DNA from: Patescibacteria group bacterium | GTDB taxonomy: Bacteria; Patescibacteriota; Microgenomatia; UBA8517 | Assembly: GCA_022562395.1 (NCBI GenBank) | Contig: JADFPI010000001.1 | Span: 1,456 to 65,455, forward strand | Direction: 5' to 3' | DNA length: 64,000 nucleotides | In this document: one piece after another, positions 131 to 6,929 of the stretch | Numbering within the stretch: the stretch's first letter is position 1 | Layout of the letters: each line of letters begins with the position of its first letter | Program-made: the position numbers and the translations under genes | Notes under the pieces: generated by a model | Told to the model about the DNA's origin: nothing | Database searches by the model: none | Seen by the model: only the letters and a program-made list of their open reading frames with translations

Positions 131-331
131 GATCGGGTTTTATTTGGTATATTCATTTGACTATATGTAAGCCTTCTTGTCAAGGGTATTTAAATATATC
201 AAAGTGGGATGCATCCTGAAAGAAGAAATTCTGGCCGTATTATATCAGGTTTTGCGGCAGCAAAAAATGATCGGTGATTAATGATTTGTGGCTAGTCTGT
301 GGATTTTGGAGAGCAAAGGAGAAAAAGATTT

Positions 332-535
332 TTACTTCTTCTTACCCTGAGATTTTCGAATGGGCCAATCCACAATAGTAATTTTCCGTCCCCGAAGTTT
401 GACCACAACCTTTTGCCTCTCGCGCCAGCGGAGTTTGCGCATTATTTCAATCGGTAGGGTCAACCCCAAGCTTCGTCCGCCGCCCATTCTTGTTAGTTTC
501 CTTATATTTTTTTCGCTTAATTTCCTTCTGGCCAT
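332..535 (-). CDS. AbrB/MazE/SpoVT-family small DNA-binding protein (copy 1)
   Basis: 67 aa. RKLTRMGGGRSLGLTLPIEIMRKLRW...KVVVKLRGRKITI fits the swapped-hairpin AbrB/MazE pattern. Duplicated at 1773..1976. Confidence 0.6.
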   Translation of the reverse strand: MARRKLSEKNIRKLTRMGGGRSLGLTLPIEIMRKLRWRERQKVVVKLRGRKITIVDWPIRKSQGKKK

Positions 536-564
536 TTTAACTACTGAGTTAACTACTGAATTAA

Positions 565-584
565 CTACTGAATTAATTCAGTAG
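565..584. promoter_or_regulatory. Perfect 20-bp palindrome CTACTGAATTAATTCAGTAG in the 5' leader of the AbrB-like gene (candidate operator)
   Basis: Exact palindrome, flanked by partial AACTACTGA(A/G)TT tandem units at 539-574. Also found at 1982-2001 and 61545-61564. Confidence 0.6.
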
Positions 585-604
585 CAACTTTCTAATCTGT
601 CCAT

Positions 605-613
605 ATTTTAGCA
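605..613 (-). promoter_or_regulatory. Extended -10 promoter (rc TGCTAAAAT) for AbrB-like copy 1
   Basis: Plus strand reads attttagca; one of seven copies of the motif in the 1-5.4 kb islet. Confidence 0.5.
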
Positions 614-638
614 GAATTGGAGATTAGAGGTTATTTTT

Positions 639-965: not shown

Positions 966-977
966 AATAATTGGTGG

Positions 978-1051
978 TATTTTAGCACGAAATTAAATTT
1001 TGTGATGTGGATATGAAGTCAAGAGTGTCGAGAGGTCGGACCTCTAAATTG
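978..1051 (-). repeat. Conserved ~74-bp promoter-proximal element (copy a), containing the TGCTAAAAT -10 and an AGAGGTC-G-GACCTCT hairpin
   Basis: About 90% identical to 5337..5411. The hairpin lies at 1031-1045. Confidence 0.7.
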
Positions 1052-1156
1052 TTTCAGATAGAAATAAAATATAATATGTGTTACTATATTAACATCACTA
1101 GGGAGAAACGAACGCTTGACTACGTGTCATGTCGCAACGCCTCCCACTTTTTTTGG

Positions 1157-1690
1157 TTAAATTTTAAGCTTCTCTCTCTCAAATTCTATAAAAGTTTTAT
1201 ATTTATGAAATCGCTTCAATAAAGATGACTCTGATTTTGAATTAGGAATTACGATACGAAGTAACTTTTTCTTTTTCTCTAAGTATTCGTGCAAACAATA
1301 AAAATCGCCGTCTCCTGATACTATTACTGCTCTATCATATTTCGGATACTGAATTGTTGCCGCATGTAAAACCAGCTCTGCGTCAACATTTCCTTTAGGT
1401 TTGCCCAAATTATCCTTGACTGTTGGTTTGAATACCAATTCATAACCGTAAGATTTTAAACGCCCGTAAAGCCTTCGGTTCTGTTTGATATAGCCTATGA
1501 AAAGGAAGGCTTTTTTGACACGAAATTTATCAGCTAAATATATCCTGAATTTTTTGAAATCTAGCTTCCACCCTCTATAAATTAACCTTTTGTTCCTATA
1601 AATATTCTTACTGGTGCCGAGGTTCAAATTTTGGCTATCGATGAAGGCATATATTGCTGGTCGTTTTTTGTTTTTGGAAAGTTTCGCCAT
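1157..1690 (-). CDS. NYN/LabA-like (PIN-related) domain protein, putative RNase
   Basis: IYAFIDSQNL, VDAELVLHAA and VIVSGDGDF motifs typical of NYN/LabA (DUF88). Leaderless with TGCTAAAAT -10 at 1700-1708. The 23-mer cattctggccgtattttagcacg is identical to the one before the protease gene at 5326-5348. Confidence 0.65.
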   Translation of the reverse strand: MAKLSKNKKRPAIYAFIDSQNLNLGTSKNIYRNKRLIYRGWKLDFKKFRIYLADKFRVKKAFLFIGYIKQNRRLYGRLKSYGYELVFKPTVKDNLGKPKGNVDAELVLHAATIQYPKYDRAVIVSGDGDFYCLHEYLEKKKKLLRIVIPNSKSESSLLKRFHKYKTFIEFEREKLKI

Positions 1691-1772
1691 TCTGGCCGTA
1701 TTTTAGCACGCTAAACACTTACGCGTAACGTGGCGAGCCACTTTCTTGAAGCTAAGCAGAGTAAAAAGATTT

Positions 1773-1976
1773 TTACTTCTTCTTGCCCTGAGATTTCCGA
1801 ACGGGCCAATCCACGATAGTAATTTTCTTCCCCCGAAGCCGGACTACCACCTTTTGCCTCTCGCGCCAGCGAAGTTTGCGCATAATTTCAATCGGTAGGG
1901 TTAAGCCGAGGCTTCGTCCGCCGCCCATTCTTGTTAGTTTCCTTATATTTTTTTCGCTTAATTTTCTTCTGGCCAT
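1773..1976 (-). CDS. AbrB/MazE/SpoVT-family small DNA-binding protein (copy 2)
   Basis: 67 aa, 63/67 identical to the 332..535 product. Confidence 0.6.
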   Translation of the reverse strand: MARRKLSEKNIRKLTRMGGGRSLGLTLPIEIMRKLRWRERQKVVVRLRGKKITIVDWPVRKSQGKKK

Positions 1977-1981
1977 TTTAA

Positions 1982-2001
1982 CTACTGAATTAATTCAGTA
2001 G
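1982..2001. promoter_or_regulatory. Palindrome CTACTGAATTAATTCAGTAG (copy 2 operator candidate)
   Basis: Exact palindrome in the leader of 1773..1976, followed by an extra TTAATTCAGTAG half-site. Confidence 0.6.
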
Positions 2002-2058
2002 TTAATTCAGTAGCAATTTTCTAATCTGCCTGTATTTTAGCACAGGCGAAGAATTTGG

Positions 2059-2604
2059 TTATTTTTTGATACTCACTTCAAGTGCGTCGGAGCCGACATC
2101 GTGTGTTGTGCTTTTATATTTCCCGCTTTCGCGCACATATTCCAGGAAGTCGCCCATGTCTTCTTTAAATATTTTTACATTATCCGCAACCACAACCGCT
2201 CCGTTTTGTAAGTTTCCTTCCGCCAGTTTTAAGTAATCCAAATAGTCTTCTTTCGCCGCATCAATGAACATAAAATCAAATGTAGCTGAAAGTGTTGGAA
2301 TCAGCTCTTTTGCGTAGCCTACCTTTATTTCAACTCTATCTTCAAACCCTGCTTTTTTAATATTCTCCCGGGCAATTTCTGCATTTTCCGGATCAACTTC
2401 AATAGTGACTATTTTTGTATTTGCACCAACCGCTTCAGCCATTAGTATTGCAGAATACCCCACATACGTCCCAATCTCTAAAATCCTTTTTGGCTTTTTG
2501 TCTTTAACCACATCCACAAGGACTTTACCTTTTTTAGGTCCGACAAGCATAATATGCCCCTCTGACTCAATTTTTTCTATTACTTTTTTTGCTGCGCTAC
2601 TCAT
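2059..2604 (-). CDS. class I SAM-dependent O-methyltransferase (caffeoyl-CoA OMT / YrrM-TrmR-like family)
   Basis: ILEIGTYVGYSAI is the SAM-binding motif I; FDFMFIDAAKEDY is typical of family-3 O-MTases. A TGCTAAAAT -10 at 2666-2674 leaves an about 60-nt leader. Confidence 0.75.
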   Translation of the reverse strand: MSSAAKKVIEKIESEGHIMLVGPKKGKVLVDVVKDKKPKRILEIGTYVGYSAILMAEAVGANTKIVTIEVDPENAEIARENIKKAGFEDRVEIKVGYAKELIPTLSATFDFMFIDAAKEDYLDYLKLAEGNLQNGAVVVADNVKIFKEDMGDFLEYVRESGKYKSTTHDVGSDALEVSIKK

Positions 2605-3350: not shown

Positions 3351-3773
3351 CTAGTGTATCTTTCCGTTAGTGGGAAAGAGTCTTTCGAGTTTGCATTTCT
3401 CTCTATTGCTTAACCCCGGCATTGTTAAATGTATAAAAAATTGTTTCCAGTTTCTTCCGGTAGCTATCAATACTCGTTCGTCGTTTATTATTTTTATTCC
3501 TTCCCACTTATCTTCGTCTTTTGTTATTATCAGCAAATTTTCCCGCCCGTAAATGTTTCTGTAATCCAAACTATATCTTTCTTCTTCTCCGCGGTAGGAT
3601 TCTATTTCCGGTTCGTAAAGCGCGGTTCCGGAAATATCCACTCCTTTCACCTTTCTGTAACTTACAAATAGGACGTTAAAAGGAAAATCATTAAGTTCAG
3701 GCCTATCCTCGATATTTAAATTGTGGGGTATAAACGCGAAACGGTTTTTATATATAAATGTTTCAGCTATCAT
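3351..3773 (-). CDS. hypothetical protein (140 aa) under SAM-I riboswitch control
   Basis: ORF with a strong SD (AGGGAGGTGA) immediately after the riboswitch terminator. No recognisable family. Confidence 0.55.
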   Translation of the reverse strand: MIAETFIYKNRFAFIPHNLNIEDRPELNDFPFNVLFVSYRKVKGVDISGTALYEPEIESYRGEEERYSLDYRNIYGRENLLIITKDEDKWEGIKIINDERVLIATGRNWKQFFIHLTMPGLSNREKCKLERLFPTNGKIH

Positions 3774-3798
3774 TTATATCACCTCCCTTCTAAGTCAC

Positions 3799-3824
3799 GA
3801 AAAAACCTCTCCCGAAAGAGAGGT
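3799..3824 (-). terminator. Intrinsic terminator of the SAM-I riboswitch (GACCUCUC-UUUCGG-GAGAGG + U6)
   Basis: 6-bp GC-rich stem with a 6-nt loop, followed by TTTTTT on the minus strand. Confidence 0.8.
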
Positions 3825-3968
3825 CAAATCTTTGCCAACAAAAAATCGGCCAAATCTTTCCCTTCCGGGCTGGACTTGGCACCGTTTTCCTTCGACTTTA
3901 CTCAGGACCGGTTGCCGGGTGGGTCATTGAGCCAGTACTCTCGCCACCACTCTTGATTTATTGCCTTA
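3799..3968 (-). promoter_or_regulatory. SAM-I (S-box) riboswitch: aptamer (about 3847-3962) plus terminator expression platform
   Basis: Minus-strand RNA matches the S-box consensus. It has AUCAAGAG, then GGUGGCGAGAG-UACUGGCUC (P2 with k-turn-like GA), AAUGACCCACCCGGCAACC, GGUGCCAAGUCC (P3), CCCGGAAGGG (P4 GGAA tetraloop) and GAAAGAUUUGG (P1 3' strand). It is preceded by a TGGTATAAT promoter and followed by a terminator and SD. No ORF lies inside. Confidence 0.85.
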
Positions 3969-3974
3969 CGACTA

Positions 3975-3983
3975 CATTATACC
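3975..3983 (-). promoter_or_regulatory. Extended -10 (rc TGGTATAAT) driving the SAM-I riboswitch transcript
   Basis: Plus strand reads attatacca. The TSS is predicted about 7 nt downstream. Confidence 0.55.
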
Positions 3984-4002
3984 ACACCTTTTTGAGGCTG
4001 AA

Positions 4003-4051: not shown

Positions 4052-5329
4052 TCAGGATTGGTCTGCATAGAACCATTCCCAGGAAGGTTCTTCTACCTCC
4101 TTAATCTTGCTTCGATTCATTTTATAAACCCCATCCTCTAAAACTGTCTGCCAGGTACCTTCATAGTAATGATAATCTACTTCTTCGTCATTCCAGTTTT
4201 TTGTTGAAAATTTAACAAAAGCAGTATCGTCGGTATTTTCGTGGGGCTCGGAAATATAAATCTCAACGTCAAGAATATCGGTGAACCTATTTGTCCACTC
4301 CTCAAAATTCGTTTTTTCAAGGTATTTACTAGATAAAAGCGCAAATCCATCCTCCATCCTCCGTGCCTTTAAATAAGTATAAAAAGCTCTAACCGCCTCT
4401 TCCGGGGAAACCGACGGATCTACTTCGATTTTAGTGATTTCGCTGTCGGTAAATTCAGCCGATAGCCCTTCTATCCAATTGGCAGGAATAAATAAAGATA
4501 AACCCGCCAGACCAAGGGTATTCACTCCTACAACTTTACCGCATATATCCACCAGAGGGCCCCCACTCATTCCTTCAACAAGATTTATATCTGTTTGGAT
4601 ATAAGCGGTGCCGGCCGATTTTTGCTCTCTGAACGAGACGTACTCACCTTTTTGGATAGTTGCTTCACCGGCTAAATCTGTTCCCAAGGCGTAACCGGCA
4701 GCAATAAGCTTTTCTCTGTCGTAAAAAACAAGTGGGTCCATCATCTCAAGGACTAAATCCGGATAGTTTTCTTTCGTAAATAAAATGGCAAGGTCATAAT
4801 ATTGGGTACCGGTAATTGTTTCCGGTGTAGCGAAGCTGCCGTCTGAAAAGATTATTTTCGGACTCGGTTCGCCGGCAATGACGTGGAAGTTGGTAAGAAC
4901 CTGATTCTCGGATATAAAAAAGCCCGACCCTTCGGAGTAGCCGCCGACTATCCTTACTACCGAATCTTTAAGTTTTTGGTCCACCCCGTATCCGCACAAG
5001 AATTTAGAGTAGTGTCCGTAGTTTGTTTGGATGTAGTCAACAATGACAAAGAGCGATGCAAAGATATAGATAACCAGTGCCGTTATAAATATCGACTTCA
5101 GAAAGTTTTTCAAACTTCTAAAAGGAAAGGTTATAGTTTCAAAAAATATTTTTATTAATGAAATTAGGGTTTTTATAAAAAACTTAATAATGTAGTAAGT
5201 TGAGTAAGTGATTGTTTTTACTGGGAAAAGATATAGGGGAAAAAGAAGCCGTTTGACGTAATTTTTGAATCTTAAATAAAGCTCGGAGATTCTTTTCTTA
5301 ACGTTTCGCTTAATCCTACCCACCTTCAT
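4052..5329 (-). CDS. membrane-anchored trypsin-like serine protease (S1C/HtrA-like)
   Basis: N-terminal TM segment. Catalytic triad contexts are TNFHVI (His), YDLAIL (Asp) and GMSGGPLV (Ser). Leaderless with TGCTAAAAT at 5339-5347. Confidence 0.8.
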   Translation of the reverse strand: MKVGRIKRNVKKRISELYLRFKNYVKRLLFPLYLFPVKTITYSTYYIIKFFIKTLISLIKIFFETITFPFRSLKNFLKSIFITALVIYIFASLFVIVDYIQTNYGHYSKFLCGYGVDQKLKDSVVRIVGGYSEGSGFFISENQVLTNFHVIAGEPSPKIIFSDGSFATPETITGTQYYDLAILFTKENYPDLVLEMMDPLVFYDREKLIAAGYALGTDLAGEATIQKGEYVSFREQKSAGTAYIQTDINLVEGMSGGPLVDICGKVVGVNTLGLAGLSLFIPANWIEGLSAEFTDSEITKIEVDPSVSPEEAVRAFYTYLKARRMEDGFALLSSKYLEKTNFEEWTNRFTDILDVEIYISEPHENTDDTAFVKFSTKNWNDEEVDYHYYEGTWQTVLEDGVYKMNRSKIKEVEEPSWEWFYADQS

Positions 5330-5336
5330 TCTGGCC

Positions 5337-5411
5337 GTATTTTAGCACGAAATTAGATTTTGTAATGTGGAGATGAAGTCAAGAGTGTCAAGAGGTCGGA
5401 CCTCTACATTG
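5337..5411 (-). repeat. Conserved ~74-bp promoter-proximal element (copy b)
   Basis: About 90% identical to 978..1051. The hairpin agaggtcggacctct lies at 5391-5405. Confidence 0.7.
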
Positions 5412-5433
5412 CCTCACTCTTTCTGTAAGACCG

Positions 5434-5468: not shown

Positions 5469-5726
5469 ATGGCAACGATAATAACCGTTACCAGTAAAGG
5501 ACAAGTGACGCTTCCTAAGAAAATTCGAGAGACCCTTGGTATTAAAAAGGGAGACCGTATTATTGCCAGGACCAAGGGTAAAAAAATAACCCTCGAGCCC
5601 GCAGGACGTGGCATTCTTGATTTTGCTGGAAAACTTGGAAAGCTTAAGGTGCCGAAAGGAAAAACAGTAGATGACCTTATACATGAGGCAACCACAGAAG
5701 TCCTTAGTAAAAATGCTCTCGGGTAA
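5469..5726 (+). CDS. vapB: VapB-like antitoxin (AbrB/SpoVT swapped-hairpin domain)
   Basis: ITVTSKGQVTLPKKIRETLGIKKGDRI motif. Overlaps the downstream PIN gene by 14 nt. Confidence 0.75.
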   Translation: MATIITVTSKGQVTLPKKIRETLGIKKGDRIIARTKGKKITLEPAGRGILDFAGKLGKLKVPKGKTVDDLIHEATTEVLSKNALG

Positions 5727-6120
5727 GATATTTGTCGACACGAACATCTTCATATACCTTCTCTATGAAGTAGATGATAAAAAACATTCTGCGTGTATCG
5801 ATTTACTTAAAAAGGCCAGGGAAGGTGAAGTAAGATTATGGACAACTGAATGGGTTATCGCTGAGCTTATATGGTTTTTACATAGAAGAAAGAAGGTTTG
5901 GAGTGAAATTGAGCTAATAGTAAATAGTATGTTGACTACTAAAGGATTGGAGATAAGAAACAAGAAGTGGCTTTTAGAGATATTGGTACCGTGCAAGAAG
6001 GTAACAGACTTTTTTGATTCTGTAAACATGTCGATTTTATTATCCGAAGGGGTGAATAGAGGCTATTCTTATGACAGGGGGCTTGATAGGTGGAGAAGCT
6101 TCAAAAGGATGGAACCGTAA
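5713..6120 (+). CDS. vapC: VapC toxin (PIN-domain ribonuclease)
   Basis: MLSGKIFVDTNIFIY holds the first PIN Asp; WVIAEL holds the Glu. Start chosen at the internal ATG 5713, since track ORF 5671 overlaps vapB. Confidence 0.75.
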   Translation: MLSGKIFVDTNIFIYLLYEVDDKKHSACIDLLKKAREGEVRLWTTEWVIAELIWFLHRRKKVWSEIELIVNSMLTTKGLEIRNKKWLLEILVPCKKVTDFFDSVNMSILLSEGVNRGYSYDRGLDRWRSFKRMEP

Positions 6121-6284: not shown

Positions 6285-6293
6285 TGATATAAT
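6285..6293 (+). promoter_or_regulatory. Extended -10 TGATATAAT for the pepE-like gene (leaderless, ATG 6 nt downstream)
   Basis: Sequence tgatataat at 6285-6293; ATG at 6300. Confidence 0.55.
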
Positions 6294-6299
6294 TCAGAC

Positions 6300-6929
6300 A
6301 TGAAACAGCTATTTCTTACTTCCGGTGTCCATGCGGTAGCACACGATATTTCTAAAAAAGTCGACCTTTCTAAAGGCAACAAGCTTGTATTCATTGATAC
6401 CGCTGCAGAGGGTGAAAAGGGAGACAAGCAGTGGCTTAAAAACGACAGGAAAGCACTTGTAGATGCTGGGTTTGAAGTTGCGGACTACTCAATCACAGGT
6501 AAATCAAAGGACGAACTAGAAACTTACCTTCCGAAATTCGACTATATTTATCTCTCGGGCGGTAATACCTCTTACCTTTTACAGCAATCACAAAAGTCGG
6601 GGTTTATTCCTGTAATAAAAGACCTGGTTCTCAAAAAAGGAAAAACATACATTGGCACCAGTGCAGGCTCAATAATTGCCGGCCCGGTGCTACCTGTTTA
6701 TTTACTGGATGACAGCGAGGATATAAAACTAGATGACCCGAAAGGGTATGGTTTTGTTAATTTTACAATTTTGCCGCACTGGGGTTCTGAAGACTTCAAA
6801 AAGATGTATTTAGGGAAAAGATTAGAAACCGTATACAAGGAAGACCAAGTACCGTTACTACTTCTGACGGACAACCAATACGTTCATGTCCGAAACGACC
6901 AAGTGAAGATTGTTGATGTAAACGGTTGA
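6300..6929 (+). CDS. pepE: peptidase S51 (dipeptidase E-like)
   Basis: YIGTSAGS nucleophile-Ser motif and overall PepE-like layout. Confidence 0.65.
   Translation: MKQLFLTSGVHAVAHDISKKVDLSKGNKLVFIDTAAEGEKGDKQWLKNDRKALVDAGFEVADYSITGKSKDELETYLPKFDYIYLSGGNTSYLLQQSQKSGFIPVIKDLVLKKGKTYIGTSAGSIIAGPVLPVYLLDDSEDIKLDDPKGYGFVNFTILPHWGSEDFKKMYLGKRLETVYKEDQVPLLLLTDNQYVHVRNDQVKIVDVNG

Follow-up and report, generated by a model that had tools for sequence, protein, structure and literature searches.

The closest described relatives of the element reported here are the SAM-I riboswitches of Firmicutes (RF00162), such as the yitJ, metE and metK leaders of B. subtilis and the aptamer of T. tengcongensis, whose usual targets are genes for the biosynthesis, salvage or transport of methionine, cysteine or SAM. 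The element we describe was found in a 64,000-nucleotide stretch of DNA that we analyzed as a whole (hereafter, the window). It has the four-way junction and the core nucleotides of its Firmicutes relatives, as well as their pseudoknot between the P2 loop and J3/4, and it is predicted to follow the same terminator/antiterminator OFF logic. It differs from them in its host, a member of the Patescibacteria, and in its target, a solitary uncharacterised gene that we call X. Moreover, its P3 carries an insertion and its P4 is short, and the leaders of the X family share extra motifs outside the aptamer. Patescibacteria have a minimal metabolism and take most of their building blocks from their hosts; to our knowledge, how they sense a cofactor shortage and respond to it is largely unknown. 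Our literature search returned no paper on the association of a SAM switch with X, an absence that is not proof, and nothing relevant on SAM riboswitches in Patescibacteria, CPR or Parcubacteria.

The preliminary description of this DNA had matched its minus strand to the SAM-I consensus helix by helix. All the strings quoted there (AUCAAGAG, GGUGGCGAGAG/CUGGCUC, CCCGGCAACC, GGUGCCAAGUCC, CCCGGAAGGG and GAAAGAUUUGG) are present on that strand, and a cmscan of the whole window with Rfam 15, run at gathering thresholds, returned a match to RF00162 with 48.9 bits (E 3.6e-8), above the gathering score of 44.4 bits for this family (Table 1). The match is untruncated and spans model positions 1-108 of 108. 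The 64 kb yielded two matches in total, this one and a tRNA, so RF00162 is the sole riboswitch. The score exceeds the gathering threshold by just 4.5 bits, and this modest value is explained by 9 nt inserted in the P3 loop and by a short P4, not by the loss of core positions. Indeed, the consensus is matched at all the strongly conserved (upper-case) positions: AUCAAGAG, GAG...CUGGC...AUGA (P2), GGCAACC, GGUGCCAA, UCC-GC and GAAAGAU.

We aligned the window aptamer with 22 aptamers located upstream of X homologs (23 leaders) and scored the pairs of P1, proximal P3, P4, the J3/4-J4/1 pair and the pseudoknot, using as a control the same partners slid by 1-3 columns. Standard pairs occupied 89.7% of the cells, compared with 33-44% in the slid controls, and 12 of the 22 pairs showed changes on both sides, a value that no shuffle reached. 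Across the related leaders P1, P3 and P4 were 73-100% paired. The core AUC-AGAG, GCAACC and GGUGC is invariant in all 23 leaders, and GA-AGAU is also listed among the conserved positions. The pseudoknot lies outside the Rfam model and therefore provides independent evidence for a SAM-I aptamer; it is 100% paired, with compensatory changes in all four of its pairs (CUGG/CCAG, CUAG/CUAG, CCGA/UCGG and UUGG/CCAA). In the P2 kink-turn region, the GA-containing strands CGAGAG and AAUGAC stand at the expected place in the Rfam alignment; the MAFFT alignment is unreliable in P2 for pair counts. These results show that the window RNA is a SAM-I aptamer under purifying selection rather than a chance match. 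Short of biochemistry, the riboswitch call can be taken as secure, and the RNA is expected to bind SAM. It is a fresh instance of a long-known riboswitch class and adds nothing new to riboswitch biology.

Table 1. Coordinates of the riboswitch, its predicted promoter and expression platform, and the genes discussed with them in the window.
Feature	Position	Strand	Details	Basis
Extended -10 box	3976..3984	-	TGGTATAAT (TG-n-TATAAT); no good -35 element	sequence
SAM-I (S-box) aptamer	3849..3962	-	four-way junction P1-P4	RF00162 cmscan and leader alignment
P1	3960..3955 with 3856..3851	-	extendable by GGC 3965..3963 with GCC 3850..3848	
Pseudoknot P2 loop/J3-4	3935..3932 with 3873..3870	-	CUGG with CCAG	leader alignment
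Antiterminator strand	3859..3867	-	CGGAAGGGA (P4 loop and P4 3' side); partner TCTCTTTCG at 3821..3813, in the terminator 5' half	
Linker motif	3834..3848	-	CGATTTTTTGTT, directly after the P1 3' strand	conserved among leaders
Intrinsic terminator	3798..3825	-	9-bp stem GACCTCTCT/GGAGAGGTT, loop TTCG, U-run	terminator scan
Shine-Dalgarno sequence	3780..3788	-	AGGGAGGTG, 6 nt before ATG 3773	sequence
Gene X	3351..3773	-	140-aa soluble protein; ATG at 3773	ORF
O-methyltransferase	2059..2604	-	PF01596, E 1e-27	

The riboswitch had also been said to have a promoter of its own, and the extended -10 box found just upstream of the aptamer makes this credible. A generic sigma-70 scan missed this promoter because its -35 element is poor. 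Boxes of this type are over-represented before genes in the window: the pattern TGnTAwAAT occurs 19 times, against 7.0 +/- 2.7 in shuffles, none of which reached 19, and nearly every copy sits just upstream of a gene or a tRNA. The host genome thus appears to rely on extended -10 promoters, and from the one before the aptamer transcription would start at about 3969. Several of these boxes lie only ~7-15 nt from a start codon (for example the box at 2989-2997, with its ATG at 2982, and that at 6285-6293, with its start at 6300), and the organism may therefore have many mRNAs that are leaderless or have a very short leader.

Downstream of the aptamer, the strong terminator reported before the Shine-Dalgarno sequence of X was recovered as a 9-bp hairpin with a U-run. 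The hairpin, at 3825..3804 (-) and followed by TTTT, has a predicted energy of -12.0 kcal/mol (RNAfold), and nearly all the related leaders have a hairpin (-8 to -17 kcal/mol) and a U-run between the aptamer and the start codon. In these leaders the 3' part of the aptamer, which comprises the 3' side of P4, J4/1 and the beginning of the P1 3' strand, has its complement in the 5' half of the terminator. The corresponding antiterminator duplex of the window reaches -10.9 kcal/mol with RNAduplex, versus -7.3 +/- 2.4 for shuffled sequences; it consists of 9 bp, including 2 G-U pairs, is weaker than average and was equalled by 17 of 200 shuffles. An equivalent pairing is found in 19 other leaders; most leaders outpair all or nearly all of their shuffled controls, and the two strands covary across leaders (GGGAAAGA with TCTTTCC, GGGGAGA with TCTCCCC). 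The leader therefore contains the mutually exclusive terminator and antiterminator that characterize a SAM-I expression platform, with a pairing that is weak in the window, and we infer that it works by antitermination.

As for the motifs outside the aptamer, (G)GTCGATTTTTT(A/G)TTT recurs just after P1 in most leaders of the X family, and in the window the U-run of this linker motif is able to pair with the downstream GCAAAGA. Between the -10 box and P1, TACAAYTGAATA(G/A) is conserved in the related leaders (L003-L071), outside the Rfam aptamer; it is missing from the window and L001, where GTAGTCG(T/C)AAGGC takes its place. On paper, ACAATTGA on the 5' side and TCGATT on the 3' side could form a 'P0' helix; we discarded it, as it has no backing from covariation and the frequent ACAACTGA variant breaks the pairing without compensation. 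We likewise discarded the direct repeat AAAGATTTG(G/A)C of the window leader (P1 3' strand, 3830s) as a decoy P1, since L001, the closest relative, does not conserve it.

Homologs of X elsewhere also sit behind S-box elements. We gathered 76 loci around X homologs from assemblies, GTDB genomes and JGI metagenomes, of which 67 were left after de-duplication, and searched them for Rfam families. Of the 63 assessable loci, 52 (~80%) have a SAM-I or SAM-I/IV aptamer just upstream of X, on the same strand. In 43 of them it is a SAM-I aptamer and in seven a SAM-I/IV aptamer; one more has a SAM-I core with a large P2 insertion that cmscan missed (L008), and in another the aptamer is cut by the contig end (L073). 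The count takes in two matches slightly below their gathering scores (L001, 44.2 bits; L005, 35.6), and relatives score up to 75 bits. In four other loci the upstream sequence was too short to assess. The remaining 11 had no detectable element: a core-motif regex found none in any of the 11, and neither did a search at a permissive E-value in the five to which it was applied. The permissive checks were also run on L008 and on the contig-end loci, and only L008 and L073 were rescued.

Within the CPR, the pairing of switch and X is carried by Wildermuth-, Gribaldo-, Portnoy-, Staskawicz- and Wolfe-bacteria, Paceibacterota and Peregrinibacteria; the other carriers are MAGs labelled Gammaproteobacteria, Gastranaerophilales, Pseudobdellovibrionaceae and Acidobacteriaceae. 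Loci with X and no element were found in MAGs labelled Acidobacteriota, Acidobacteriaceae and Binataceae; they also include a Saccharibacteria copy, which is truncated, and one from Moraniibacteriota, and all the others are unlabelled metagenome contigs. The window itself comes from a CPR genome, as had been surmised, since a protein identical to X (P0001) has been annotated as a hypothetical protein of a 'Patescibacteria group bacterium'. The expectation that a SAM riboswitch would be notable in such a genome does not hold: dozens of CPR loci carry one, and the unusual part is the target gene. In the reading that we favour, the X family would regularly form part of the SAM regulon of Patescibacteria and of a few further phyla. 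Against this reading we count the 11 loci with X but no SAM element, together with the fact that X adjoins metK in only one of the 67 loci.

Some of the gathered loci have arrangements of their own. A Peregrinibacteria MAG (L028, 3948..4050 and 4879..4981) has two copies of the riboswitch together with the first codons of X, one on either side of an inserted antitoxin/PIN pair; both aptamers lack P4, end 7 nt before the ATG and are not followed by a terminator, which suggests that control may be translational in this lineage. In an Acidobacteriaceae MAG (L030, 4263..5324) a SAM-I/IV aptamer precedes the gene of a DUF3293 protein and then a frameshifted X, an order that would place DUF3293 as another uncharacterised family under SAM control. 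LOOT RNA (RF03000; 83 and 70 bits) is found ~1-1.5 kb upstream of the riboswitch and X in two metagenome contigs (L048, 2257..2380; L050, 2956..3088).

Several repeats and small gene modules surround the locus in the window. A 231-nt direct repeat, 91% identical between 322..552 and 1763..1993, carries in each copy a 67-aa MazE/AbrB-like ORF (332..535 and 1773..1976, minus strand); its copies are adjoined by AT-rich palindromic repeats (CTACTGAATTAA...; 549..638 and 1978..2067) and flank an NYN-domain gene (1157..1690) and a 108-aa ORF. The region looks like a duplicated antitoxin-like module. An 85-nt repeat (972..1056 and 5332..5416; 89% identical) precedes both the 108-aa ORF and a trypsin-like protease gene on the minus strand. 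With its GC hairpin (AGAGGTCCGACCTCT), TTGACT and TGCTAAAAT, it is apparently a reused terminator-plus-promoter module. Beside the protease gene, at 5469..6120 (+), an ORF for an 85-aa MazE/AbrB-type antitoxin overlaps a 149-aa PIN-domain ORF, a predicted VapBC-like toxin-antitoxin pair. The protease is membrane-anchored (PF13365) and occurs near X in three loci (window, 4052..5329, minus strand; L001, 2648..3775; L053, 4503..5795), upstream of X in two of them and downstream in one. This adjacency may reflect lineage synteny or a weak functional link, for example peptide or methionine scavenging. Finally, the O-methyltransferase also matches PADLOC 'mad2', a component of the MADS system (E 4.7e-22), which may be mere shared similarity of the methyltransferase fold.

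The target of the switch had been presented as a 140-aa protein with no recognisable family, and so it remained after our searches: X had no match in Pfam-A, NCBIfam, PADLOC or PHROGs, and a profile search found no PDB relative. It has 20 close homologs, and its family amounts to 192 representatives at 50% identity, mostly from CPR lineages. X is therefore a real, conserved gene of an unnamed family. In an alignment of 109 sequences, P16, N33, Y53, P55, Y71, N73, K94, W109, F113 and G120 are invariant, and E125 and C127 near-invariant. The AlphaFold2 model obtained with this alignment (pLDDT 90.1, pTM 0.83) is mostly beta-sheet: its six strands are antiparallel, residues 109-117 form the one helix, and the N-terminal segment is extended and conserved. 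No structural relative of the model was found in the fold libraries searched. The conserved residues alternate along the strands (G49/A51/Y53/P55, M69/Y71/N73 and Y90/G92/K94), so that one face of the sheet is rich in Tyr, Asn, Lys and Gly or other small residues. In the model, this face resembles what may be a ligand cradle.

X usually appears to be a single-gene unit: in an all-against-all BLAST of the flanking ORFs, no partner was present in more than three loci. In Wolfebacteria GWA1_42_9 (L023), the riboswitch is followed by metK, which holds all three S-AdoMet_synt domains, and then by X, which begins 20 nt past metK; this operon has the only metK found in any of the loci. In three loci (L021, L024 and L061) a 78-96-aa ORF, 'Y', stands between the switch and X, and P0116 and P0140 are fusions with Y N-terminal to X. 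A different ORF of 86 aa, 'Z', takes the position of Y in L038, and P0066 has a Z-like segment joined to X. Other fusions join X to a preceding DSP-PTPase domain (P0095), to a weak HD_4-like domain (P0032), to TPR repeats (five proteins) and to zinc-finger-like tails (P0050, P0110, P0185 and P0239), and P0052 is a tandem X-X.

All this evidence makes it very likely, in our judgment, that the element is a canonical SAM-I transcriptional OFF switch on a one-gene unit and that X is a conserved family of the SAM regulon. Transcription would begin at the extended -10 promoter, a few bases ahead of the aptamer. When SAM is plentiful, the aptamer would fold (P1-P4 and the pseudoknot) and sequester the strand 3867..3859; with this strand locked, the hairpin 3825..3804 and its U-run would form and transcription would stop before X. 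When SAM is scarce, the same strand would pair with the 5' half of the terminator, RNA polymerase would read through and X would be made. Given that X is paired with a SAM switch in ~80% of the loci, it has a probable role in SAM shortage, and since the rule of making X at low SAM has been retained in two aptamer sub-classes and in several phyla, what the protein does must be important specifically in such conditions. The X family is probably an undescribed part of the response of ultra-small bacteria to SAM shortage.

What X does in this response can only be proposed tentatively. Our preference, held with somewhat less than even confidence, is for a small ligand-binding or regulatory protein that restores or spares SAM in shortage, beside SAM synthetase, and not for a classical biosynthetic enzyme. 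A role in restoring or sparing SAM is favoured by the metK operon and the OFF logic. The small size of X, its conserved sheet face and the interaction and phosphatase domains fused to it speak more for a protein that binds a ligand or regulates than for a pathway enzyme. On the other side, X is patchy and accessory and has no conserved metabolic neighbour, which makes it a poor fit to a core metabolic role.

The same observations bear on the possibility that X is a new-fold enzyme that makes or recycles methionine or SAM, in salvage or in the methyl cycle, as the preliminary description had suggested alongside a role as transport partner; we consider this rather unlikely. Such an enzyme would share the OFF logic of classical S-box biosynthetic and salvage genes and would be at home in the metK-X operon, and the invariant polar residues N33, Y53, Y71, N73 and K94 could form an active site with the near-invariant E125 and C127. 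However, C127 and H115 are not strictly invariant in the 109-sequence alignment, the distribution of X is that of an accessory gene, and a beta-sheet protein of 130-140 aa with no cofactor motif and no pathway neighbours is unlikely to be a stand-alone pathway; its fusion partners, moreover, are TPR repeats, zinc fingers and phosphatases, not metabolic enzymes. We rejected X as a SAM lyase, an MsrB-like or another small SAM- or methionine-related enzyme, as sequence and fold support is lacking.

The accessory, mobile-looking distribution of X and its variable partner ORFs led us to keep another reading open, improbable as we take it to be: that X is a conflict or stress effector and the switch a SAM-depletion alarm. 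A crash in SAM, through attack by phage SAM lyases, severe starvation or loss of the host supply, would release X; as a signal-binding module or an effector with a new fold, the protein would then act through phosphatase- or alarmone-type signalling or through growth arrest, and the riboswitch would take the part of the antitoxin. X does behave as a solitary, patchy cassette of variable regions, often near tRNA genes or toxin-antitoxin pairs. Its neighbourhoods often include DNA methyltransferases, restriction and defence genes and transposases, with GmrSD, AIPR, AbiV and Cas3 among the neighbours, and the window copy sits among MazE/PIN and NYN genes. HD_4 hydrolase genes (RelA/SpoT-type HD) are the immediate upstream neighbours of the cassette in L006, L031 and L048, three distant loci; several of the architectures listed above are conflict-like (DSP-PTPase-X, HD-X, X-TPR, X-zinc finger and tandem X-X), and Y and Z are small, variable upstream partners that other genomes fuse to X. 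Nevertheless, a PADLOC scan of the 95 nearest neighbours of X gave scattered matches only, a handful in all, so defence-island enrichment stays a weak lead, and restriction-modification and toxin-antitoxin genes abound in CPR genomes in any case. Neither PADLOC nor PHROGs gave a match to X itself, which was also not found in IMG/VR or in deposited phage genomes, and co-transcription with metK would be odd for a toxin. If the alarm reading were true, a metabolite riboswitch would be the sensor of a stress or immune response and not of a biosynthetic pathway.

Returning to the transcriptional OFF switch, we regard it as very unlikely that control is instead mainly translational, by sequestration of the Shine-Dalgarno sequence, or that read-through also governs the two genes downstream of X, a 93-aa ORF and the O-methyltransferase. 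The minimum free energy fold of the full window leader does pair ACCUCUCU with AGGGAGGU, that is, CCUCUCU of the terminator 5' half with the Shine-Dalgarno sequence, and in the second L028 copy (L028b) the aptamer ends 7 nt before the ATG. However, most of the other leaders examined do not have this pairing, and nearly all have the strong hairpin and U-run. As to read-through, the terminator scan of the window found no clear terminator after X, and the O-methyltransferase that the preliminary description had placed downstream, in the same orientation, is indeed there. Its membership in the regulated unit is another matter: extended -10 boxes precede both the 93-aa ORF (2989-2997) and the O-methyltransferase (2666-2674), and neither gene is syntenic with X elsewhere, so both are probably outside the unit, and we rejected an operon of X with the O-methyltransferase. 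Finally, an aptamer that has drifted to sense SAH or another SAM analogue, or that is a decaying relic, might be suspected from the low score of the window match, from the two relatives just under their gathering scores and from a target that is not a known SAM gene, but it is hardly credible given the invariant core of the 23 leaders, the helices and pseudoknot that covary under selection, the relatives that reach 75 bits and the aptamer of the same type that precedes metK in L023.

The new content of this work is the conserved link between a SAM switch and an unnamed family with a confident predicted fold and no detectable relatives. The value of the riboswitch is as a pointer to this family of ~190 sequence clusters, whose protein, judging from the switch, would be made only at low SAM by cells in at least six phylum-level groups. 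A conserved, SAM-switched protein that is small and soluble offers a concrete entry point to the SAM-related biology of ultra-small bacteria, and leads to its binding and interactions come from the metK operon and from what it is naturally fused to (PTPase, HD, TPR, zinc finger, Y and Z).

Among known systems, SAM-I/IV riboswitches (RF01725) belong to the same clan as the window SAM-I element and share its ligand-binding core; the window element is of the SAM-I type, with a P4 helix, and does not have the I/IV pseudoknot arrangement. Since SAM-I/IV aptamers precede X homologs in seven loci, the regulatory link is kept across the sub-classes. Phage SAM lyases (T3 SAMase, Svi3-3) are small proteins, ~140-150 aa long, with ties both to SAM levels and to restriction-modification conflict (PMC7877911). 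X is likewise small and tied to SAM levels; unlike these lyases, it is not found in phages, it has neither sequence nor fold similarity to T3 SAMase or Svi3-3, and a gene switched off by SAM would have the wrong logic for a SAM-degrading enzyme. The ykkC/guanidine riboswitch, with its sugE and carboxylase targets, is an example of the discovery of gene function led by a riboswitch (PMC7266159). As in that case, the tight, conserved pairing of a riboswitch with uncharacterised genes points to their pathway; unlike in that case, here the ligand is known and the gene is uncharacterised, and the inference runs from the RNA to the protein.
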